Shown here piece by piece: positions 6,225 through 33,879 of a stretch of DNA of 34,020 bases. The stretch is from a virus (lineage: Duplodnaviria; Caudoviricetes): the IMG/VR virus record IMGVR_UViG_3300030372_003397, positions 1 to 34,020 of that record; one strand, written 5' to 3'. The stretch's first letter is position 1. Every line of letters begins with the position of its first letter. The notes beneath the pieces were generated by a model. The model searched no databases. It was not told where the DNA came from and worked only from the letters and a program-made list of their open reading frames with translations. Both the position numbers and the translations under genes were made by a program.

Positions 6225-6635
6225 TTAGTGAGTTCCGCGTGTTACTGCTCCTGTAACTTGTAAATCTGCTGAATATCCTACGACATCTCCAACAGGACTT
6301 GACTTAGAATAACTTGTCATTATTGCTTCGCCAGTATATTTAACTTTACCACTTGCAGTACCCTCTGGAGAGTATTCAAATGATAATGTTGCACTTTGGC
6401 CAACAACTGCACCGAATATTGCGTCTGCTGTTGCGTCCCATAGTCCTGATAATGAGATAGTTGCGTCTTTAAGTCCAACAATGTAGGTTTTATTGCTAGC
6501 CCCTAAAGTTGTTGTTTCAGCAACATCTGCGGTCTGAGGAAAATCAACATTATTTACATACGAACTTACATCAGTTAGTGATCCAGAACCATTGTCTAGT
6601 TTAAAAACCGAATCTGATCCATGTACAAATGCCAT
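6225..6635 (-). CDS. Major tail tube protein
   Basis: AETTTLG..KTYIVGLKDATISLSG motif, YSADLQVTG C-terminus, position before chaperone. Confidence 0.85.
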   Translation of the reverse strand: MAFVHGSDSVFKLDNGSGSLTDVSSYVNNVDFPQTADVAETTTLGASNKTYIVGLKDATISLSGLWDATADAIFGAVVGQSATLSFEYSPEGTASGKVKYTGEAIMTSYSKSSPVGDVVGYSADLQVTGAVTRGTH

Positions 6636-6643
6636 ATTTCTCC

Positions 6644-7360
6644 TTAATTGTTTCTTCCAAATCCTACTATAGCATTTATAGTAGGTGTTGAGCTACCACC
6701 AATAGTGTTATGTACTCTTACATAACGATTAATAGTAGTTCCTTTATCTACGTATTTTATTTCGCTTGTTGCCCCAGTTGCTTGCGTAAATGTAATCAAA
6801 TCAGCATAAGTAACATTATCTGCACTATGTTGTATTTTTACATCTCCAGTTGGACTTGTCCCACTAACTGAAGTAACAATTAAAAAAGCTCCTGCACCTG
6901 CGGTAGTACTTGAAGTATTATCTACTGCACTTCCTTGCGCACCTGTTGTTGTAAAAGCAGAATTAGTAATAACAACTCCCGAAAAAAGGCCATTATCAGG
7001 TTGCACATCAATACTTGTAGCAACTACATCGCCTACTGGACTAGATACTGCATAATTACTTATGTTACCTTTACCAAATGTATTTCTATCTCCTGTTGCT
7101 ACTCCGTCTAAACCAATAACTAAATTAAAATCAGCTCCACCTAATAAAGGTTGTAATACTCCGTCTGAAGTTGCGTCAAATAATCCACCTAAACTTATTG
7201 TTCCGTCTTTTTCTCCAGGTACATAAGTTTTATTACTATTACCAAATGTAGTTGTTTCAGCTATGTCCGCAGTTTGCGTACTATCTGCATTATTAAAATA
7301 TGTTGAGTAATTACTTGCATTAACATAAATAACTACATCTTTACCATGTACAAATGCCAC
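6644..7360 (-). CDS. Second tail tube paralog with ~110 aa C-terminal extra domain (GTG start)
   Basis: Shares MAFVHG, TAD.AETTT.G.SNKTY, KD.TISL.GL.DAT.D and SSPVGDVV with 6225..6635; GGAGGT RBS. Confidence 0.78.
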   Translation of the reverse strand: MAFVHGKDVVIYVNASNYSTYFNNADSTQTADIAETTTFGNSNKTYVPGEKDGTISLGGLFDATSDGVLQPLLGGADFNLVIGLDGVATGDRNTFGKGNISNYAVSSPVGDVVATSIDVQPDNGLFSGVVITNSAFTTTGAQGSAVDNTSSTTAGAGAFLIVTSVSGTSPTGDVKIQHSADNVTYADLITFTQATGATSEIKYVDKGTTINRYVRVHNTIGGSSTPTINAIVGFGRNN

Positions 7361-14722: not shown

Positions 14723-15970
14723 TTAGTAAGCGACATATCTCTTTTTCCTTATCGTTTCCGCTACTGCATACGCCAAAGCATCTACTTGGTCGTCATGTTC
14801 GCCTAAAGGAAACTGCAGTAACTCCCTTTCCAATTCAGAGTACCAACTAGCACTCCTATTAAAATAGACACTTCCTCCCTCCATCTTAGCACCTAAAGGC
14901 AATGCTCTGCTAACTTTGTCTTTATCAGCTCTTAATTCTTTTACTGGTATTCCTTGCCGTCTTGCCATTTGAATAATTGATAATTGAAAGCCTGCTTTTT
15001 CAATTCCTACAAATACTGGTTTATATTTATTAATAACTGTTCCTATTAATGGAATAATATCAGGTGCCTCTACTCTTGCTCTAGTAACATCTAAAACAAA
15101 TAGTTCATTATTTTTACTTTCGCCAACTGTAACTATTGCAGTATAATCAGCAGTTTCTTTTGTACTTGTTGCTAAATCTACGCAAGTATATATTGTAAGT
15201 TCTTTTTCTTTTACTTCTTGTGATCCAAATTTATAATAAGTATTTAGTTCCTCATTACCTCTAAAGTTATATTCAACTTTATCTTGTATTGTATAATACC
15301 TTAACCAATCAGGTTTAATTAATCCTCCTCCTGCTTCAACAAATTGGGCTTCATATTCTTGACTAAATAAAAAACTTCCTATTTCATTTTTTGCACTTTT
15401 TAATTCATCTTTAGGTATATAAGGATTTGTATTTGTATGAAATTGCCAACTTTTCCACTCTTCGTTATCTTGAGCTCTTTCAAATAGCCTACTAAACCAA
15501 TTAAAGCCACTAGGTGTGCTAATAAATAAAGCGTGTCCTTGTTTATCTGTTAAGGTTGGCCTTACTATTTCAGCCCAAGTTTCCTCTTTTATATATGCGC
15601 ACTCATCTAATACAACAAAGTCAAGTCCTGCACCTCTTAACCTTTGTGGGTTATCTGCTGACTTTATTTGTAATTGGCCACCACCAGGAAAATTAATTAA
15701 CTTTTGTGCCTCTTGTAATTCAGCACTTTCAATATCATATATCATTTGCCTTATATCTCGCCAACCCTCCATTGCCATAGGATAAGTAGGTGCGATCCAC
15801 CAAACACGGCCACCTTCAAGTGCATATTTAATAGCCATAGCAATACCTAATCTTGTTTTGCCCCAACGCCTACCTGCTACAACTATTTTAAATCTTGTAT
15901 CGTCTTCAGCTATTTGCCTTTGTAATTCGTGTAAGTCAGGTAGTTCAATTTCTATTTCTGGTCTGGCCAT
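14723..15970 (-). CDS. terL: Terminase large subunit
   Basis: Walker A GRRWGKT, Walker B VVLDE, ISTP, nuclease HDDQVDAL. Confidence 0.96.
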   Translation of the reverse strand: MARPEIEIELPDLHELQRQIAEDDTRFKIVVAGRRWGKTRLGIAMAIKYALEGGRVWWIAPTYPMAMEGWRDIRQMIYDIESAELQEAQKLINFPGGGQLQIKSADNPQRLRGAGLDFVVLDECAYIKEETWAEIVRPTLTDKQGHALFISTPSGFNWFSRLFERAQDNEEWKSWQFHTNTNPYIPKDELKSAKNEIGSFLFSQEYEAQFVEAGGGLIKPDWLRYYTIQDKVEYNFRGNEELNTYYKFGSQEVKEKELTIYTCVDLATSTKETADYTAIVTVGESKNNELFVLDVTRARVEAPDIIPLIGTVINKYKPVFVGIEKAGFQLSIIQMARRQGIPVKELRADKDKVSRALPLGAKMEGGSVYFNRSASWYSELERELLQFPLGEHDDQVDALAYAVAETIRKKRYVAY

Positions 15971-16362
15971 TGTAATTTAACTTTTAGAGGTTCATCATTA
16001 TCATTGCCAACTTTTACAATTTGCTTTGTTCCAAATTCATCAGGAAAGCGTCTTTCTAAAAACCACATATCTATTTGATGTTTGCCCTCTTGAGCTCCTT
16101 TATCTAATCTTGCTAATCGCCTACTTACTGCTTCTGAATTAGCTTTTCTTACAGTTAATGCTAGTTCCTTTAATAAGTTTTCATATGGAGTATTTAATCT
16201 TTTATTTTCCTCAATAAGTTCATTACCTTGTTTACGCCATTTACGGAAAGTTTCCTCACTTATTCCTAAATTTTCTGATACAAGTTTATAAGTTAAACCT
16301 AATATAACTAATCCTCTAACTTCAGAAATTATATCAGGAGTTAGTTTAGTTGGTCTTGCCAT
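15952..16362 (-). CDS. terS: Terminase small subunit
   Basis: RPTKLTP, HTH GISEETF.KW, WFLERRFPDEFG; directly upstream of terL. Confidence 0.82.
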   Translation of the reverse strand: MARPTKLTPDIISEVRGLVILGLTYKLVSENLGISEETFRKWRKQGNELIEENKRLNTPYENLLKELALTVRKANSEAVSRRLARLDKGAQEGKHQIDMWFLERRFPDEFGTKQIVKVGNDNDEPLKVKLQWPDQK

Positions 16363-17493: not shown

Positions 17494-17872
17494 TTTTTAA
17501 CCTTATATCTAATCCTTTTTCAGCAAACATTTTATTTATATCGCTTATTTTTTCTTTTCGGTCTTGCTTATTATATTCCTGAACTATTTCTTTAGGACTT
17601 TCCTCTAATTCTTTTTCTAAAGGTTTAATAACAATATCGTTTGGAATATTATCTTCTTTTAAATAAATTGCAGACCAAACATATTTATATTGTTGGGACT
17701 TATGAAAACAATTTTCTAAATCACATTTATGAGTTTCAATATCCCAATTATCATTTCTTAAAGTCCAAATATGATGACCAAATCTTGGTATATGGTGCTT
17801 AAGAAAAGTAGTAGTACAAACACCATTAGGATTATTTTTAAGTAAAGCTCTAACTTCCTCTAATTGTGTCAT
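17486..17872 (-). CDS. Winged-HTH-like protein
   Basis: PRFG..IWTLR...WDIET..C....C motif. Confidence 0.58.
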   Translation of the reverse strand: MTQLEEVRALLKNNPNGVCTTTFLKHHIPRFGHHIWTLRNDNWDIETHKCDLENCFHKSQQYKYVWSAIYLKEDNIPNDIVIKPLEKELEESPKEIVQEYNKQDRKEKISDINKMFAEKGLDIRLKNG

Positions 17873-18972
17873 ACTTTAGCCTTTCTATTTTCCTCAGTTA
17901 ACCAATTCTTAAACTTTTTAGTCATTCTTGTACTACCATTTGCACAAGTCCTATTGCCTTTAGCATTTTTAAACATTGGATCACTTTCACTTATACCTGC
18001 TTTAGCTAAGCACTCTTGCGTATGAAAGAAGTTACCTAACCAATGAACATCATTTTCCTGATAAGATTTCAGGAGTAATATTTGTTGCTTATGACTTATG
18101 AATTGACCAACTAACATTAACATTTGGCTTGTAAAGTATTCGCTATGATTATTAGAGCAACCTCTACCTTGGTGCGATAACTCGTGCAATAAAGTCATAT
18201 CGTCTCCCCATTTTTTTAGGACTATCTCATTAGTCCATTTTTTATAATGAGAAGTTCCGTTATAGGAGTTTGGAATTGTAATAGTAATTTTATTATCAAA
18301 GTAAGCCTTATAAAAATAACTACTAAATATTTTTTCCTTAACTCTTTGAATTACTAAAGCCTCAATCTCTTTAGTAGTTTTATAGTCCATATTTTTAACT
18401 GTATAATGTCTAGTTCTTAAATTATGGACTGCTCTATCCCAATAATTTACATTTTGCATTTCAATTACTTTCAAATCAATATATGCCTCTGCTCTCAAAT
18501 AAGGTACATTTTCTTTATCAACATAACTACGACCATTACTTACAAAGTAACTCATATCAATTTCTAATTTGTGATCCGGATATTCTTTTGCAAGTCTTTC
18601 GGCTTGCTCCCAAATCCAACCTAAATAGTCAGTGTCATCATTTTTACCTAAAGGTGCATAATTTATTTCATTATGATTAAAATAAACTGCATTACCTCTA
18701 CGACTATAATGGCCAAAGTACTTTATAACATAATTAGCATTAGCTCCGTCTATCTCTCTTTCCTCATTATGAAATTCAGGAACTTCAAATTTATCCTTTT
18801 TAGGATTATATGCTTTTTCAATTACGCCTTGTGATCCAACACTAAAAACTAATTGCTGATTTTCGACCATATCTATTTTTCTAGCATTAAGTTTTTTAAC
18901 ATTAGGAAAAATATTATGAGTTCTAGGAACTTGCCTTTCGGCTTTATAAACTTTATGTTGTTGATTACGCAT
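17869..18972 (-). CDS. HEXXH zinc metallopeptidase-like protein (Rv0185/TIGR04338-like ends)
   Basis: N-terminal QHKVYKAE and C-terminal LLHELSH...HSEYF. Confidence 0.68.
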   Translation of the reverse strand: MRNQQHKVYKAERQVPRTHNIFPNVKKLNARKIDMVENQQLVFSVGSQGVIEKAYNPKKDKFEVPEFHNEEREIDGANANYVIKYFGHYSRRGNAVYFNHNEINYAPLGKNDDTDYLGWIWEQAERLAKEYPDHKLEIDMSYFVSNGRSYVDKENVPYLRAEAYIDLKVIEMQNVNYWDRAVHNLRTRHYTVKNMDYKTTKEIEALVIQRVKEKIFSSYFYKAYFDNKITITIPNSYNGTSHYKKWTNEIVLKKWGDDMTLLHELSHQGRGCSNNHSEYFTSQMLMLVGQFISHKQQILLLKSYQENDVHWLGNFFHTQECLAKAGISESDPMFKNAKGNRTCANGSTRMTKKFKNWLTEENRKAKV

Positions 18973-19304: not shown

Positions 19305-20510
19305 TTACTCTTCTTCTTCAATATTAGGAAACATCTCTGACACTTTTTTGGTTATATTAGTAATTGATAAAATTGTTGATAATGTTACATGACTCTTAAC
19401 GGATCCAACAGGATAATTCATTTCTTTGTCTAATCTTGCTAAAGTTCCGTCATCTAAAACATATTGACCAAATTCGCCAATTTTATAAATATAATTATTA
19501 TCAATTGAAATTACATCATCTCCAAAAAACTCTAAATATTGTAATTGCAATTTCCAACTACCACCTAATAAGTGAACAGGTCGGCCTTTAAATGCCTCAT
19601 AATTAACTTCAGTACCACCATAAGAAGTAGGAACAGAAAAACCTAATACATATTTTTCAGGAATTTTATCAATGCAATCATATTTAGGAATTAAAATTGT
19701 GTTTTCAGCATATTCATCAACTTCTTCTGCAAAGTCCATAATTTGTTCAAAAGTATAATATTCAATATCATTTTCTCTGCATTGGTCCGATGACATAATA
19801 TCTCTAGTTGTTGCATATTTAGGTTTAAAATGCGAAACTGCTTTAATATGTCTTTCATGATTATAACCTTTCCACTCGTTATCAATAAATTCAATTTTAT
19901 GGCTCCAGTCAAATCTATTTCTTATTTCAGGCTTATCAACATATCTATGGCACTCTTTACTAATGGATCCGCAAAGCCAACCAAATTCTTTAGCAACAAA
20001 TGTAGTAGTTGCATAAGGACTAAAACTATAAATTAAATCTAAAGGTAATTTTCTTTTAAAGTTTTTTGGCTTACTATCATCTACTGCTTTATTAGTATCT
20101 AAATCAAGAGGTGTTTCAAGTTCAGCTAATAATGCGTCTAAATCATCTCCGTCAAATCCTGTTCCAATTAATGTATCAGTTTTAGCAATATCAGTTAATA
20201 AATCCTTTAAAACATCATTATTGTACATACTTATGTCGCCAAGCCTATTATCTGCTAATACTATTTTTTTGGCAGTTATATCATCTACATCAACAAATTC
20301 AGCCTCTATTGTTTTATTGCCTAGCATTTTCATAGCTAAATAAGTATGATTTCCTGCAAGTATTTCCATAGTCCTTTTATTAACAACGATACTTCTAAAC
20401 TGGCCAAATTCCTCTATTGAAGTTGCAATTGCTCCTACATCTCCTTGATTTGGATTATCAGGATATAGTTTTAGTTCTGTTAGTTTTACTGTCTTTTTTT
20501 CGACTATCAT
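19305..20510 (-). CDS. ParB/Srx-like N-terminal domain fused to TGT/DpdA-like domain; candidate 7-deazaguanine DNA transglycosylase
   Basis: ParB-N motifs YPDNP, SIEEFG, ILAGNH, LADNR; C-domain FIDN...TTRDI...PVHLLGG...SIDNN resembles TGT-fold signatures (from memory DUF6610-like); start set at ATG 20510 after GAGGAAAGGA. Confidence 0.65.
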   Translation of the reverse strand: MIVEKKTVKLTELKLYPDNPNQGDVGAIATSIEEFGQFRSIVVNKRTMEILAGNHTYLAMKMLGNKTIEAEFVDVDDITAKKIVLADNRLGDISMYNNDVLKDLLTDIAKTDTLIGTGFDGDDLDALLAELETPLDLDTNKAVDDSKPKNFKRKLPLDLIYSFSPYATTTFVAKEFGWLCGSISKECHRYVDKPEIRNRFDWSHKIEFIDNEWKGYNHERHIKAVSHFKPKYATTRDIMSSDQCRENDIEYYTFEQIMDFAEEVDEYAENTILIPKYDCIDKIPEKYVLGFSVPTSYGGTEVNYEAFKGRPVHLLGGSWKLQLQYLEFFGDDVISIDNNYIYKIGEFGQYVLDDGTLARLDKEMNYPVGSVKSHVTLSTILSITNITKKVSEMFPNIEEEE

Positions 20511-20688
20511 TTTTAGTCCTTTCCTCATAACACTCTCTGCAACTTATTACAAAATATTCTCCTAAATTAAAAAAATATGTTTCCTTATGAATTATTTGAG
20601 ATCGCATAAAAAAAATTGTCTTTAATAATGTATTGCAAAAACTACAATTGTAATTTATAGGTTGTAATATATCTTGTGCATTTATCAT
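20458..20688 (-). CDS. Small zinc-finger protein
   Basis: CSFC...CREC; TAATG-coupled to the rep gene. Confidence 0.6.
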   Translation of the reverse strand: MINAQDILQPINYNCSFCNTLLKTIFFMRSQIIHKETYFFNLGEYFVISCRECYEERTKNDSRKKDSKTNRTKTIS

Positions 20689-24000: not shown

Positions 24001-24540
24001 TTATTTAACTAAACTAAGGAATTCAGCCCTAGTTTCGGGCTCTTTTCTAAAGGCTCCTTGCATTACGGAAGTAATCATTTGGCCGTCTGTTTTAATACCT
24101 CTTGCAACCATACATAAATGTTGCCCCTCTGCATAAACTGCAATATCTTTTGTTTCAACAAGTGATCCAAGTTCGTCTGCTATATCCTGTACTAATTTTT
24201 CCTGTAATTGTAATTTATGTGCATGTTTATGTGCAACTCTAGCAAATTTAGATAAACCTAAGACTTTCTTTTTTGTTATATAACCTATTGAAATAGTTGA
24301 ATTAAAAGGCATTAAATGGTGTTCACATAAAGACCATACTTTTATATTTTTTACTATTACCATTTGGTCAGCTTTTACTGCTTCAAATGTTGTTTCAATT
24401 TTTCCTGGTTCGTAATTAATAAATTCGTTCCAATATTTAGCAACTCTTTTAGGTGTTTCTAATAGTCCGTCCCTTTTTGGATTTTCGCCTAACTCTCTTA
24501 ATAATGAAACTATTAGTTGTTCTATCCTTTTTTGGTTCAT
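24001..24540 (-). CDS. folE: GTP cyclohydrolase I
   Basis: GLLETPKRVA, SLCEHHLMPF, GLSKFAR, LQE, HLCM..RG; ATGA-coupled start at 24540. Confidence 0.96.
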   Translation of the reverse strand: MNQKRIEQLIVSLLRELGENPKRDGLLETPKRVAKYWNEFINYEPGKIETTFEAVKADQMVIVKNIKVWSLCEHHLMPFNSTISIGYITKKKVLGLSKFARVAHKHAHKLQLQEKLVQDIADELGSLVETKDIAVYAEGQHLCMVARGIKTDGQMITSVMQGAFRKEPETRAEFLSLVK

Positions 24541-25274
24541 TTTGCTCTTTCCTTGTTCCATAATAAAGTATGCAACCTCGGGCTTAAATTAAAACCTGCC
24601 TTTAATATTTCAGGAGCTAAATTATACATATTTATAAATTGGTCTTTGTTATTACTACCCTCTGCCATAATATAAATATTTCTTAATTTATTTTCTTTTA
24701 CTATATTTTTAACTATGTCTAAATCTTGCGGATCACTTACTACAAACTTAAACATACAATTTTTTGCGTTACTTTGATATTGTTGCAAAACTTTAGGTTT
24801 AATAGTTTTATCTAAACTCATACCACTATTAGGTAACTTAGGGCTGCAATTTATATAATCAACATATTTAAAAAACTCTTCATCTTTTATTTGTACTGTT
24901 CCATTAGTTTCAATTTCTATTTTATATTTTTCTTGTTTTAGCATTTTCATAATAATTAACAACTTAGTTTGTTGTACCATTGGTTCGCCACCACTTATAA
25001 CAATATGACTACCTTTAGGTAATTTCATTTGACTAATTTGAAATAAAATTTGTTCAGGATACATACCGATAGTTTCCTTTTTTGGATCATATATAACTCC
25101 ATTTTTACCTTTCCAGTCCCATGTATAAGGAGTATCACACCAGCTACAAGTTAAATTGCAACCACTTGTCCTAATAAAAGCACATAACTTACCTACTGTT
25201 TGTCCCTCGCCTTGAAAAGTAGGTCCAAATATTTCATTAATCCTAATTAATGGCAACCTAACTGCATTAGTCAT
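24537..25274 (-). CDS. queE: 7-carboxy-7-deazaguanine synthase (radical SAM)
   Basis: EIFGPTFQGEG, CNLTCSWCDT, SGGEP, IETNG, SPKL, PRLH. Confidence 0.95.
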   Translation of the reverse strand: MTNAVRLPLIRINEIFGPTFQGEGQTVGKLCAFIRTSGCNLTCSWCDTPYTWDWKGKNGVIYDPKKETIGMYPEQILFQISQMKLPKGSHIVISGGEPMVQQTKLLIIMKMLKQEKYKIEIETNGTVQIKDEEFFKYVDYINCSPKLPNSGMSLDKTIKPKVLQQYQSNAKNCMFKFVVSDPQDLDIVKNIVKENKLRNIYIMAEGSNNKDQFINMYNLAPEILKAGFNLSPRLHTLLWNKERAK

Positions 25275-25645
25275 TATTGTTTATAACTAGCAAAAGTCTT
25301 TGGTGTTTCGCTAACTACTACCTCTTGTACTAATAAATTTTTATCTATTTGGCTAAAAGCTAATTTAAAATAATGATATAAATATTGTGCTAAGTTTTCA
25401 GCACTAGTTTGAAAGTCAAATATATCATTTAAGTTTTTATGGTCTAATTCATTATCAATATATTTTTTTATAAAGTCCATTTTTCCATAATCGAATACAA
25501 AGCCGTCATTATTAACTTCATTTGAACTTAATATAACTTCAACTTTATAATTATGGCCGTGCAACCTACCGCACTTATGACCCTCTTCTAAACCATGTAA
25601 TTGGTGCGCACTAGCAAATTCAAATACTTTACCAATTGTAAACAT
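25274..25645 (-). CDS. queD: 6-carboxy-5,6,7,8-tetrahydropterin synthase
   Basis: F.SAHQL, CGRLHGHNY, LDHKNLN, SAENLA, SETPKT. Confidence 0.95.
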   Translation of the reverse strand: MFTIGKVFEFASAHQLHGLEEGHKCGRLHGHNYKVEVILSSNEVNNDGFVFDYGKMDFIKKYIDNELDHKNLNDIFDFQTSAENLAQYLYHYFKLAFSQIDKNLLVQEVVVSETPKTFASYKQ

Positions 25646-25649
25646 TTAT

Positions 25650-26432
25650 TTACTTGCTTTCGGTCCACTCTTTTTCTAATTTAAGAGCATTTTCAAGTGC
25701 ATTATCCCAACCGTCAATATATTCAACTGGATCTCTACGACCTAATTTCCAAAAGGCTAATATTCTTTCGACATCGCTTCCTGTTTTACCATTAGCACGT
25801 CCTTTTTCATCAGGAGCATAACTTGTATTAGTATTAGCAAAAATAGTATTAAATTCTAAACCTAACTTATTGCAATTAGAATCACAATCTTGAAGTATTG
25901 TGAATTTATCTCCGTCAATATAAGGCAACTTTAATTGCACTAATTCGTTATCCCAATTTCCAATTCTAAAAGCATTCATAGCTTCGACATAAAATTCTGG
26001 TCTGCAATCAGGGTAAATTTCATGGTCTCCGCTATGAACACCTAAGCCAATATCTACTTGGCAGTTTTCTCTCGTTGCAATAGACAGGGCATATCCGGCT
26101 ATCATTGAGAAAAATATCATATTTCTATTTGGGACAACAGTCGCTTTCATATTATCTTGTTCGTAATGACCTTCAGGTACTTCAATATTATCAGTGACTA
26201 AAGCAGATTCATATATGTTACCTAATTGACTTACATCTAAAATAGTATGTTCAACTTGAAAACCTTTTTCTTTTAAATAAACTAAATTATCAGCTAATCT
26301 TTCCAGTTCTAATTTATGTTTTTGTCCATAATCAAAACTTAAAGCACTTACTTTATAGTCATTAGCTAAAAATGACACTAATAAAGCCGTACTATCCATA
26401 CCACCACTTAAACTTAATACTGCTCTTTTCAT
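25650..26432 (-). CDS. queC: 7-cyano-7-deazaguanine (preQ0) synthase
   Basis: SGGMDS, FDYGQKH, VPNRN, YPDCRPEF; ATGA-coupled start at 26432. Confidence 0.95.
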   Translation of the reverse strand: MKRAVLSLSGGMDSTALLVSFLANDYKVSALSFDYGQKHKLELERLADNLVYLKEKGFQVEHTILDVSQLGNIYESALVTDNIEVPEGHYEQDNMKATVVPNRNMIFFSMIAGYALSIATRENCQVDIGLGVHSGDHEIYPDCRPEFYVEAMNAFRIGNWDNELVQLKLPYIDGDKFTILQDCDSNCNKLGLEFNTIFANTNTSYAPDEKGRANGKTGSDVERILAFWKLGRRDPVEYIDGWDNALENALKLEKEWTESK

Positions 26433-26824
26433 TGTTCGCAATATCCTACTGAAGTAGTTTCAATACCGCCTCTTTTACTTTGTTTATTTGTAACTTTTAC
26501 CCATTTAGGATCCAAAGTATCAAATAATTTTTGTGCAATATCACTTGCTAATGCTTCGCAAAAATGACCAACTTCTCTAAATGTCCATAAATATAGCTTT
26601 AAAGATTTACTTTCAATACATAACTCATTTGGTTCATATAAAATCGTTAATTGGCCAAAATCAGGTTGCCCAGTCATTGGACATAAACTTGTTAATTCGT
26701 CTGTCCAAAACTCTACTGTTTTAGTATTTTTTGGAGTTGGAAAAGTTTCCAATTGCTCCATAGGATTTCGTGTCTTTTTGCCTAATATAGTTAGGTCTTT
26801 TGTATATTCAGGCTCATTAGCCAT
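26429..26824 (-). CDS. queF: NADPH-dependent preQ0 reductase, type I
   Basis: SLCPMTGQPDF catalytic motif, QueF motif ESKSLKLYL, RGGI. Confidence 0.93.
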   Translation of the reverse strand: MANEPEYTKDLTILGKKTRNPMEQLETFPTPKNTKTVEFWTDELTSLCPMTGQPDFGQLTILYEPNELCIESKSLKLYLWTFREVGHFCEALASDIAQKLFDTLDPKWVKVTNKQSKRGGIETTSVGYCEQ

Positions 26825-26881: not shown

Positions 26882-27415
26882 TTAAACTATGTAGCGTTTT
26901 TGTGAATTTGGTAGAGGTGCTAAGTCTTCTAATAATAAGTCCCAATAAGTAAAAGGCAGGCCAGTTTTAGATAATCCGTGCCATTTATAGCCTAAACTTT
27001 CATAAAAACCAATACTTGGTTTATTAGCAAAAAATCTAAGGTACCTTACTTTGTTATCTAAAATTTCCTTACTTAAGTAACTCATCATTTCAGAGCCAAT
27101 ATTTTTTCCTCTATAATTTTCTAAAACAAAAAAATGTCTTAAAGTGCAATGTCTCGGCTCTCGTTTAGTAAAACTAATAAACATAAATGCTTTTTGGTCT
27201 AAATGTAGTACTTTTGCATTAGGACTATTCCATTGTTTTTCTATATTCCAGTCATAAATAGCATTTTTTAAATGACTTTTACTGCTTAGTGATCCACCTT
27301 TATAATCGTCAATACTTACTAATAATGCTTTGCAATAGTCCTCATCTACTTCTCCAAAGCCATAATTATCTAACTCATCATCTAAATCGTCTAATATAGG
27401 ATTATCAAATATCAT
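26882..27415 (-). CDS. GNAT-family N-acetyltransferase
   Basis: FVLENYRGKNIG (motif A) and N..SIGFYESLGY (motif B). Confidence 0.85.
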   Translation of the reverse strand: MIFDNPILDDLDDELDNYGFGEVDEDYCKALLVSIDDYKGGSLSSKSHLKNAIYDWNIEKQWNSPNAKVLHLDQKAFMFISFTKREPRHCTLRHFFVLENYRGKNIGSEMMSYLSKEILDNKVRYLRFFANKPSIGFYESLGYKWHGLSKTGLPFTYWDLLLEDLAPLPNSQKRYIV

Positions 27416-31689: not shown

Positions 31690-32214
31690 TTATTTTTTGA
31701 TACCGTATAACTTAAATTCGCCACTTACAATATTTCCACTATTCATATAAAACTGCACTCCTTTTGTAGCAACTGCATTTTTGTACAATCCACCTCCGTG
31801 CATACCTCTAAGAATTGATGAGTTATTAACATAAGCAGTTTCTTGTGCAACTGAAGTATATTCGCTTGCATTATTAGCATTAAAAATATAATGTGATCCA
31901 TTGGCTACTTCGCCACTTGCAGTTCCTATATAATTATCAACTCCAAAGAAAAAAGTTCCACTTCCATAAGCATTTTCAGGTGTTGTATTTGCTCTAAATA
32001 CTGTCCATGAAACATTATAATTTGAATCAGTTAATGGATTATTTGAAGTATCTAATAACCTAAATAATAGTCCTTGAGTATCAGTTTGTGGTACGACATT
32101 AGCATTAGTAACTAAATAAACATTGTAACTATCGTCCCAATTAGCACCACCTAAGGTAACTGTTGCACTATTACTTGCACTTACACTATCAATTAAAATT
32201 AAACTACCTGCCAT
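31690..32214 (-). CDS. Tail-tip paralog array member S4
   Basis: Family motifs, ends FKLYGIKK. Confidence 0.7.
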   Translation of the reverse strand: MAGSLILIDSVSASNSATVTLGGANWDDSYNVYLVTNANVVPQTDTQGLLFRLLDTSNNPLTDSNYNVSWTVFRANTTPENAYGSGTFFFGVDNYIGTASGEVANGSHYIFNANNASEYTSVAQETAYVNNSSILRGMHGGGLYKNAVATKGVQFYMNSGNIVSGEFKLYGIKK

Positions 32215-32723
32215 TACTCAACACCATATATAGTCACTTTAAAAGTTTTAGTAGTATGATTAACAATTCTAACACCTGAAACTATTTCAGCAGTTTCGTG
32301 ACACCCACTTAATCTTGACCCGTCTAAACCACTATCCATAAAACTTGCACTCTGGACGGTAACAAAAGTGAATTGAGCTACATCTGCGTTAAAAATTTTA
32401 ATCAAAGCTCCACCACCCCGACTATCATCATTACTACCTACTAATATTGGTGCTATTTGACTTGTACCAGTACTCCTCCAAGTATTGTCGTATGATCCAT
32501 AAGCACTTAATTGCTCTCCACCGTATTGATATTCATTTCCGTCTATTAAAGTACCAGAATTATCATAGAACCTTAGTCCCATATATCCCCCATTAGCACT
32601 TGCATTTATCAAATCAATAAACATATAATAATTGGTATAACCTTTTCCAAATATATTTAACATATCCAAATTATTAACATTTCCGTCAGTTTCAAATTGC
32701 GATAAAAATTGTAAATTATTCAT
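32214..32723 (-). CDS. Tail-tip paralog array member S3
   Basis: Family motifs, ends VTIYGVE. Confidence 0.7.
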   Translation of the reverse strand: MNNLQFLSQFETDGNVNNLDMLNIFGKGYTNYYMFIDLINASANGGYMGLRFYDNSGTLIDGNEYQYGGEQLSAYGSYDNTWRSTGTSQIAPILVGSNDDSRGGGALIKIFNADVAQFTFVTVQSASFMDSGLDGSRLSGCHETAEIVSGVRIVNHTTKTFKVTIYGVE

Positions 32724-33370
32724 TAAGTCATTTCCATACCATAAAGAGAAAAATTTCCACCAGTAAAGTTAGTAGAACCATTTTGGTCTGGGTGAAACCT
32801 AAAACCGTTATCCATACGAGTTTCAGGTAAGCAACCACTTCCAAATTCGGATCCCTGAACATTTGCTTCAGTTTGATATAATCCGTGATAAGTAATATGA
32901 GTATATTTACTGCTATCTAATGCGTTATATACATAAATAATACTATTAGCTACTTCATTTGTATCACTACCGCAATTATCAGTTACTCTCATAGCAGGAT
33001 AATTAGTCCCTTTAACATCTGTAAAAGTTCCGTTAGATTGCTGAACCATACTTGTAACTTGATAACCAGTACCACTTGCAACTCCGTCACTTAATAGTTC
33101 TAATCCCATTAATTTATTATTGTTTTCAATAGTTATATCATTTAAAATAATGCAAAAAATATCATAAAAACCATATTGGTCTATTGAAGTAAAATCTAAA
33201 GTACTTACATTAGAAGTAACATTTGTAGTAAGCAATAAATTCATTTGGCCAAATTGAGTCCATTTATCTGCTCTTGTTAAATCATAAATATCAGTAGGTG
33301 TAAAGATACCTTTATTATTAAATGGACTTTGCTCAGGGCTTTCAGGTATATATCCTGATTCACTACTCAT
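32723..33370 (-). CDS. Tail-tip paralog array member L2 (with N-terminal extension)
   Basis: N.GIFTPTDIYDL....W extension like L1; ends FSLYGMEMT. Confidence 0.7.
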   Translation of the reverse strand: MSSESGYIPESPEQSPFNNKGIFTPTDIYDLTRADKWTQFGQMNLLLTTNVTSNVSTLDFTSIDQYGFYDIFCIILNDITIENNNKLMGLELLSDGVASGTGYQVTSMVQQSNGTFTDVKGTNYPAMRVTDNCGSDTNEVANSIIYVYNALDSSKYTHITYHGLYQTEANVQGSEFGSGCLPETRMDNGFRFHPDQNGSTNFTGGNFSLYGMEMT

Positions 33371-33372
33371 AA

Positions 33373-33879
33373 TTACACCACCTTATACAATGTAAATGTT
33401 CCATTTGTTATATTTCCTGTTGTATCATTTAAAAATTGTATTCCATTATGAGTTTCTGCAACTGTATAAACTGTCCCACCTTGATAACCTCTTGCTTCAC
33501 TTCCATTTTCAGTAACATTTTCTATTGTCATAAAACTAAATTCACTTGAATTATTAAAATTATATAAATAAAAAATGCCATTACTTCCCTCACCACCACT
33601 ATCTCCTGTGTTATTTAAAGCTCTTGTTTTTGTTTGGTTTGTATCACTATCATCTATAAAACTTGCACTTGCCCTTAAAAATGTATCTGCCCAATCATAA
33701 TTAGAAGTTGTTTGTGCAGTCCCACTAACTGTAAATCTTGCTCTAATTTCAGCAACAGGATTATCAACTGTTGCACCACTTACTGCAACCATATAAACAT
33801 CATCACTATCTATACCTGTTAAGGTTACATTTGCAACTGCACTTGATACTGTATTTGTTGATACTTGTAATAATCCCAT
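33373..33879 (-). CDS. Tail-tip paralog array member S2
   Basis: Family motifs (FYLYNFNNSSEFSF), ends FTLYKVV. Confidence 0.7.
   Translation of the reverse strand: MGLLQVSTNTVSSAVANVTLTGIDSDDVYMVAVSGATVDNPVAEIRARFTVSGTAQTTSNYDWADTFLRASASFIDDSDTNQTKTRALNNTGDSGGEGSNGIFYLYNFNNSSEFSFMTIENVTENGSEARGYQGGTVYTVAETHNGIQFLNDTTGNITNGTFTLYKVV

Follow-up and report, generated by a model that had tools for sequence, protein, structure and literature searches.

The founding member of the DpdA4 family is HVTV1_69 of Halovirus HVTV-1, a DUF6610 protein that was given the name DpdA4 on the basis of an HHpred match to TGT by Cui et al. (2023, PMC10516641). The authors describe the family as specific to archaeal viruses and report that a test of DpdA4 in E. 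coli failed; their Supplementary Data S1 also lists gp1 of mycobacteriophage Knocker as a DpdA4. Term searches of that paper and its supplement found neither 'ParB' nor 'acetyl'. In HVTV-1 DNA, dPreQ1 is reported to account for about 30% of G (PMC6884629), for which Hutinet (2019) offered a host DpdA as explanation. The catalytic set of Salmonella DpdA is Asp95/Asp130/Asp256, and the enzyme requires DpdB, a ParB-fold ATPase (PMC10164549). ParB activators are also described for phage T-dioxygenases and tolerate the loss of NTP-binding residues (PMC13229309), and the TGT-like Cap10 has the set D73/D122/K154/H226/D248 (bioRxiv 2025.04.06.647259).

We analysed a window of 34,020 bases, which is the whole of a virus record of linear class with an estimated completeness of 100% (CheckV). 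Its HK97-type head genes, tail genes, r1t holin gene and SLT lysozyme-like gene (Pfam) lie almost all on the minus strand and indicate that it is a tailed bacterial phage, the capsid protein matches having identities of only 24–32%. The datasets that hold the region are marine metagenomes; at least half of its words are found in 2 of 20, one of which is possibly the source of the window, and no RNA dataset is listed among the holders. Five alike S/T/G/N-rich ORFs (168–215 aa) are situated at both ends of the record (514–1113 and 31690–33879), which suggests that the genome is circularly permuted and that these tail-associated genes are paralogues. Two neighbouring major-tail-protein-like genes (136 and 238 aa) occupy 6225–7360. 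A scan for promoters and terminators gave signals at chance level.

The gene of interest encodes a ParB-N domain followed by a DUF6610 domain (Table 1). Its plus-strand reading is riddled with stops and was rejected. AGGA precedes the ATG at 20510, and close relatives of the protein are 402 aa long; a start at the alternative ATG at 20528, which is in frame, would lengthen the protein by 6 aa. Pfam places DUF6610 (PF20314) at residues 196–355 with an E-value of 1.9e-34 (119.5 bits, cut-off 27) and ParB_N at residues 24–88 with an E-value of 0.0028, which is under the curated cut-off; the ParB-like PHROG matches with an E-value of 3e-39. The fusion protein also matches HVTV1_69 (tblastn E 4e-18; BLASTP 33% over 141 aa) and, on sequence similarity, is a member of the predicted DpdA4 family, which comprises 862 domain clusters at 50% identity. 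An earlier, sequence-only reading had proposed a ParB-N domain fused to a divergent TGT/DpdA-like domain. Both parts of that fusion were found, and the TGT-like character of the second stands, but the family was already known by prediction as DpdA4, with the ParB-fused Knocker gp1 included. The archaeal-virus range given by Cui et al. does not hold for this protein, whose genome carries SLT lysozyme-like and r1t holin genes and whose relatives occur in Streptomyces and mycobacteriophages. The ParB-fused bacterial-phage form is thus listed in their table and, as far as the text and searched supplement of that source extend, not described in print. What is new here is that the ParB-fused forms fall into one bacterial-phage clade and are tied to queF genes or YhhQ/QueT.

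Table 1. Features of the fusion gene and related genes in the window
Feature	Positions	Strand	Basis
ParB-N + DpdA4 (DUF6610) fusion, 401 aa, predicted DNA guanine:preQ1 transglycosylase	19305..20510	-	Pfam, PHROG, models
ParB-N module, approximately residues 1-140, AGNHT replacing GxxR; likely activator or DNA-access module	20091..20510	-	PHROG, structure match
TIM-barrel DpdA4 domain, residues 150-401	19308..20063	-	Domain model, VIA-align
FIDN motif (208), D210 at end of strand 3, putative general acid/base	19878..19889	-	Analogy with DpdA Asp95
TTRDI motif (234), D237 after strand 4, putative guanine-edge contact	19797..19811	-	Analogy with DpdA Asp130
PVHLLGG motif (311), strand 7, invariant H313	19560..19580	-	Putative parallel to Cap10 H226
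SIDNN motif (335), D337 at end of strand 8, putative nucleophile	19494..19508	-	Analogy with DpdA Asp256
folE, GTP cyclohydrolase I, about 3.5 kb from fusion gene	24001..24561	-	Pfam, profiles
queE, radical SAM	24537..25274	-	Best models QueE, under their cut-offs
queD	25274..25645	-	Pfam, profiles
queC	25650..26441	-	PF06508, E 2e-41
queF, preQ1 synthase, unimodular	26429..26824	-	TIGR03139, 114.9 bits (cut-off 86.9)
GNAT acetyltransferase, candidate dPreQ1 N-acetyltransferase, directly upstream of queF	26882..27415	-	Pfam, neighbourhood comparison
Terminase small and large subunits	14723..16362	-	Pfam, PHROGs

The full-length model of the fusion protein has a pLDDT of 91, and the model of the DUF6610 domain, with eight alternating strands, has a pLDDT of 94.8. 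All 50 matches listed by Foldseek for the domain model are TGTs (best E 7e-6, TM by query 0.53–0.59). VIA-align ranks an archaeosine TGT highest (Z 14.2, rmsd 4.0, 237 residues aligned) and gives Z 13.1 for a bacterial TGT, 12.7 for PdxJ, 12.6 for Cap10 and 11.0 for DpdA (7ui4), with QTRT2 also among the matches; the lead of the TGTs over other TIM barrels is only about 1.5 Z, and the unrelated PdxJ outscores DpdA. According to the model, the DUF6610 domain is a TIM barrel, and TGTs are favoured by a small margin. Comparison with TGT and DpdA by both structure and profile had been proposed as a check; the structural half gave a TIM barrel with TGT matches, whereas the profile alignments are non-significant. 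These were hhalign runs against a 5-sequence TGT alignment, Knocker DpdA1 alone and a 21-sequence DpdA1 alignment, with probabilities of 0.3 for the TGT alignment and 0.5 for the 21-sequence DpdA1 alignment. In these two runs HLLG and SIDN align with their counterpart motifs, but the 21-sequence run misplaces D237. A search of the PDB sequences gave no match for the protein or the domain profile, TGTs and Salmonella DpdA included, and the ESM Atlas gave DUF6610 clusters only, with scores below 0.9.

The four motifs that had been noticed in the C-terminal part are present and in the order described. Two candidate catalytic Asp residues had been named; candidates of this kind are indeed conserved, but they number three (D210, D237 and D337). 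Across 147 distinct domains, D337 and H313 are found in all 147, D210 in 142 (five gaps), D237 in 144 (three gaps) and K276 in 144, and all three Asp residues are retained in HVTV-1, HF2 and Knocker. The catalytic Asp residues of TGTs are at strands 3, 4 and 8. Judged by strand order and motif rather than by superposed coordinates, D210, D237 and D337 would occupy the places of these residues.

As the sequence-only reading had stated, there is no stand-alone canonical dpdA in this genome (no PF01702 match in the six-frame translation), and neither another TGT-like family nor a DNA polymerase is found among 51 ORFs (Pfam) and 38 window ORFs (PHROGs). No tRNA gene was found in this genome. A 367-aa ORF (17869–18972), which is kept downstream of the ParB-DpdA4 fusion in close relatives, was considered as a hidden DpdA and rejected: it matches no family in Pfam, PHROG or NCBIfam, and its HELSH motif suggests a metallopeptidase. 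Palindromes (CATG, ACGT and others) are depleted in this phage; since sister phages without que genes show the same depletion, it yields no target motif.

Residues 1–130 match the N-terminal domains of ParB, PadC and KorB (PadC: Z 12.8, rmsd 2.9, 119 residues aligned). The GxxR of the CTP motif GxxRxxA is replaced by AGNHT here and in 69 of 121 members, and the position of its arginine is occupied by Thr in 80 and by Arg in 34 of the 121. Residues 98–140 are helical, and Pfam finds no HTH family in the fusion protein. The DpdA4 members of HVTV-1 and HF2 lack any ParB. By analogy with DpdB and the activators of T-dioxygenases, ParB-N is most likely a built-in activator or DNA-access module rather than a sequence reader.

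Related ParBs head other cassettes in the same region of sister phages. In sister marine phages (L193–L201, L284 and L285; e.g., L195:4339-8679), ParB-ADDT-GNAT-FAD oxidoreductase-kinase-Tet_JBP follows the same SLT gene, whose neighbouring site holds the GNAT-que genes in this phage and thus appears to be a swappable DNA-modification slot. Two terminase relatives (L265:3-1731 and L268:842-2756) have ParB with a TET-associated glycosyltransferase (PF20691), in L268 directly after the SLT gene.

In order to compare gene neighbourhoods, we collected DUF6610 loci from IMG/VR (best 80 of 103), GTDB genomes (21 of 21) and metagenomes (best 80 of 351), together with the window, Knocker, HVTV-1 and HF2. 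Removal of seven matches (duplicate loci and short pieces) from 193 domain matches left 186, which form 111 clusters at 80% identity; in this sample of the best 80 of 103 and best 80 of 351, 65 clusters are ParB-fused, 39 are without ParB and 7 are N-terminally cut. Neighbour genes were labelled by custom HMMs, and YhhQ/QueT representatives were confirmed in Pfam. A quick tree, built for 108 of these 111, places all 65 fused forms in a 74-row clade with Knocker (SH-aLRT 99), with HVTV-1 and HF2 outside it on long branches.

Within the same sample (best 80 of 103, best 80 of 351), all 50 ParB-fused clusters with at least 3 kb of downstream sequence have preQ genes or a transporter gene within 7 kb: 24 have the full pathway with queF, 8 have queF with a partial pathway or transporter, and 18 have YhhQ/QueT only, while none has a full pathway without queF. 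The next gene is queF, yhhQ or queT in 41 of these 50 clusters, and 41 have a TerL gene no more than 7 kb away, whereas a second DpdA (DpdA1) is seen in only two (again among the best 80 of 103 and 80 of 351). Eleven of the 15 ParB-fused clusters with shorter flanks also show a preQ or transporter gene, and the other four end at most 105 bases past the stop codon. The three control sets lack QueF/YhhQ/QueT: none is seen at 79 loci of terminase relatives, at 59 with a distant GNAT or at 19 that have ParB but no DUF6610. Many of these loci are short, and two hold DpdA4 and folE/queD/queE with queF beyond the fetched DNA. No preQ gene is seen in 23 of the 32 non-ParB clusters with flank (best 80 of 103, best 80 of 351). 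The co-occurrence with que genes that had been suggested as a check is observed for the ParB-fused forms, as is the distance of about 3.5 kb between the fusion gene and folE, which is followed by queE, queD, queC and queF. Since queF-containing genes or YhhQ/QueT accompany all 50 clusters, the linkage points to preQ1 as the substrate; this specific substrate and the GNAT are additions to the earlier reading.

DpdA4 is also found fused to DpdM-like and DNA-methylase domains: DpdM-like fusions occur in 2 of 245 proteins and GNAT fusions, likewise to an enzyme acting on an amine, in 5 of 245. In L029:9596-11185, P0231 and P0232, a DpdM-like CxxCxxCC domain and ParB-DpdA4 form a single chain, which YhhQ adjoins in L029. 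In L059:15289-17088, DUF6610 is fused to an N6/N4 DNA methylase, with a second DUF6610 gene and a GNAT 4.7 kb upstream. In Knocker (L081) and the Streptomyces loci L083 and L084, DpdA4 shares its cassette with DpdA1, a pairing suggestive of two bases or of two target motifs. The DUF6610 genes of L068/L095:9563-10255 and L090:9554-10927 are broken into two ORFs by a frameshift or an assembly error.

From the gene, its domains, predicted fold, conservation and gene linkage, we infer the activity, substrate and target of the protein and the role of its ParB part. Our preferred reading, to which we assign a probability of about 0.78, is that the fusion protein is a preQ1-inserting DNA transglycosylase, the ParB-fused bacterial-phage form of the predicted DpdA4 family. 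The DpdA4 barrel would swap guanine in the phage's own DNA for phage-made preQ1. By analogy with TGT and DpdA, D210 would protonate the leaving guanine, D337 would form the covalent ribose intermediate, and D237 and K276 would read the base edge, while the ParB part most likely activates the enzyme or provides access to DNA. The predicted TGT-like barrel, the conserved residues and the preQ linkage agree with the earlier proposal that the que cluster probably has its base-exchange enzyme in this protein.

The same proposal had the enzyme ParB-guided and sequence-specific, which would have ParB-N load at parS-like sites. Such 'directing' has been hypothesised (PMC13229309), and the fusion is stable across the 74-row clade. 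However, only the N-terminal part of ParB is present, no DNA-binding domain is detected by Pfam, the GxxR arginine is mostly replaced, HVTV-1 and HF2 manage without ParB, and sister phages have related ParBs in front of modification cassettes of other kinds; we consider guidance of this kind unlikely. The order of the reactions could also differ: preQ0 (or CDG), the former being the base that most characterised DpdAs insert, would be placed in DNA and reduced there later by QueF, with the same final base. The phage QueFs tested, however, use the free base like the bacterial enzyme, and the QueF encoded here passes the preQ1-synthase cut-off. Moreover, 18 of the 50 clusters (best 80 of 103, best 80 of 351) have a transporter only, in which case the base used by the enzyme is the one brought in from outside; a preQ0-first order is rather improbable.

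Insertion of preQ1 into phage DNA also has to be weighed against another target, either host tRNA or a protein that is deazaguanylated as with CBASS Cap10. The best structural matches are tRNA enzymes, and Cap10, according to the preprint, is a TGT fold with the same D/D/K/H/D set. Against this, the ParB fusion, the proximity of terminase in 41 of 50 clusters (best 80 of 103, best 80 of 351) and the DpdM-like and DNA-methylase fusions all point to DNA, the genome lacks a PF01702 match and a tRNA gene, and HVTV-1 DNA carries dPreQ1, which makes a non-DNA target very unlikely. Least probable is a protein without catalytic activity that reads modified DNA or assists with it, for instance in packaging, while another enzyme inserts the base. 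Non-catalytic TGT paralogues such as QTRT2 exist, and Knocker, L083 and L084 encode DpdA1 in addition, but the three Asp residues are near-invariant, this genome shows no other TGT-like gene, and most compact cassettes contain no other unlabelled ORF of at least 150 aa between the DpdA4 gene and TerL.

The preQ1-inserting reading leaves a place for the GNAT, which is encoded with a pathway yielding an aminomethyl base and might acetylate the aminomethyl group of the inserted base, a step that we put at slightly under even odds. Its relatives (more than 40% identity) are found next to queF in the close phages L002-type, L004 and L111, in 12 loci of one lineage with an FAD gene, 11 with ADDT, plus Tet_JBP, inside the unrelated queF clusters L288 (phrog_887 DpdA) and L290 (a protein 35% identical to KVP40-type proteins), and in four loci with no que gene seen. 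L290 also holds a weak GATase gene, which could indicate another end product. PaMx11 is reported to make 5-acetylaminomethyl-dU through an ADDT/GNAT/FAD-type gene set (PMC8989533). The window GNAT has no match to PaMx11 gp48 at E ≤ 1 in a collection that may not include PaMx11, and the GNAT tree leaves the origins of the gene unsettled. Nei-Gojobori dN/dS values of the GNAT are 0.11–0.18 among L002, L004 and L111 and 0.28–0.35 against the window, and those of DpdA4 in these pairs are similar. A GNAT occurs in only 6 of 65 ParB-fused clusters and never together with a neighbouring DpdM (7 of 65; small numbers), and a separate GNAT family adjoins 17 and is fused to 6 of the 39 non-ParB clusters (all among the best 80 of 103 and 80 of 351). 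In the nearest relative, L109, and in L007, the slot of the GNAT holds DNA methyltransferases.

A GNAT of the separate, DpdA4-linked family is found beside dpdA and queF in the cultured phage vB_DshS-R5C (L352), where gp079–gp095 comprise folE, queD, queE, queC, queF (annotated as GTP cyclohydrolase), dpdA and the GNAT gp088. In L353:3908-5085, a Thermocrinis Great Boiling Spring virus, a GNAT of the same family directly precedes a phrog_887 DpdA-like gene, and a gene with a SAVED domain lies upstream. In L291:1-901, near terminase, a window-type GNAT is followed by genes for a DpdN-like formyltransferase relative (phrog_9240) and a sulfotransferase-like protein. In L286:5258-6037, L287:7034-8020 and L289:7013-7987, which have no que genes, a window-type GNAT adjoins a 325-aa protein of no clear family with an N-terminal D-x-H motif, presumably amidohydrolase-like; this pair is possibly another amine-generating DNA modification.

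Because cassettes of the aminomethyl-uracil type and unrelated queF clusters both contain relatives of the GNAT, acetyl-dPreQ1 is a possible product. We tentatively propose, with a chance somewhat short of one half, that the phage makes 7-(acetylamino)methyl-7-deazaguanine: ParB-activated DpdA4 would insert preQ1 and the GNAT would acetylate it. The GNAT family may move between thymine and deazaguanine cassettes since both expose an aminomethyl group, and a second, separate GNAT family may have taken on this role next to DpdA4 and DpdA1, vB_DshS-R5C included. Our literature searches found no acetylated preQ1 in DNA, and the available text of the R5C publications (PMC5454422, PMC11806900) reports no base analysis.

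DpdA4 has so far been proposed by prediction from a halovirus, and the bacterial-phage clade offers non-halophilic enzymes; its cultured carriers Knocker, Funsized and Rinkes could settle whether DpdA4 inserts preQ1. The single-chain fusion is also a way to ask what ParB-N does for phage DNA-modifying enzymes. Acetyl-dPreQ1, should this less than evenly likely proposal prove true, is the part that would surprise specialists: it would extend the 7-deazaguanines of phage DNA by a base whose mass is predicted and which could be sought in a cultured phage (R5C).

Compared with the described systems, the fusion protein shares with HVTV1_69 its Pfam family, the three Asp motifs and a place beside folE/queDEC/queF, whereas HVTV1_69 lacks ParB-N, comes from an archaeal virus and has a long branch outside the clade of the fused forms. 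Knocker gp1 (QWY84440.1) is closer, with ParB and DUF6610 (38.7% identity over 87% of the length) followed by queF and que genes; however, Knocker also encodes DpdA1 and DpdM, whereas DpdA4 is the sole candidate here and a GNAT stands beside queF. DpdA-DpdB of Salmonella Montevideo is likewise a TGT-fold DNA transglycosylase with three Asp residues that needs a ParB-fold partner, but is made up of two proteins, uses preQ0 and has a DGQQR ATPase motif (PMC10164549). The ParB activators of T-dioxygenases resemble the N-terminal module in having a ParB nucleotide-binding domain, no obvious DNA-binding domain and a tie to a post-replicative modifying enzyme, and differ in being separate proteins that serve another enzyme (PMC13229309). 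Finally, the reaction proposed for the GNAT would parallel those of PaMx11 gp48, a 5-aminomethyl-dU acetyltransferase (PMC8989533), DpdM and DpdN, in which a major-groove aminomethyl group is acylated or alkylated, and the likeness to gp48 extends to its setting, since relatives of the window GNAT sit in ADDT-GNAT-FAD-kinase-Tet_JBP cassettes.
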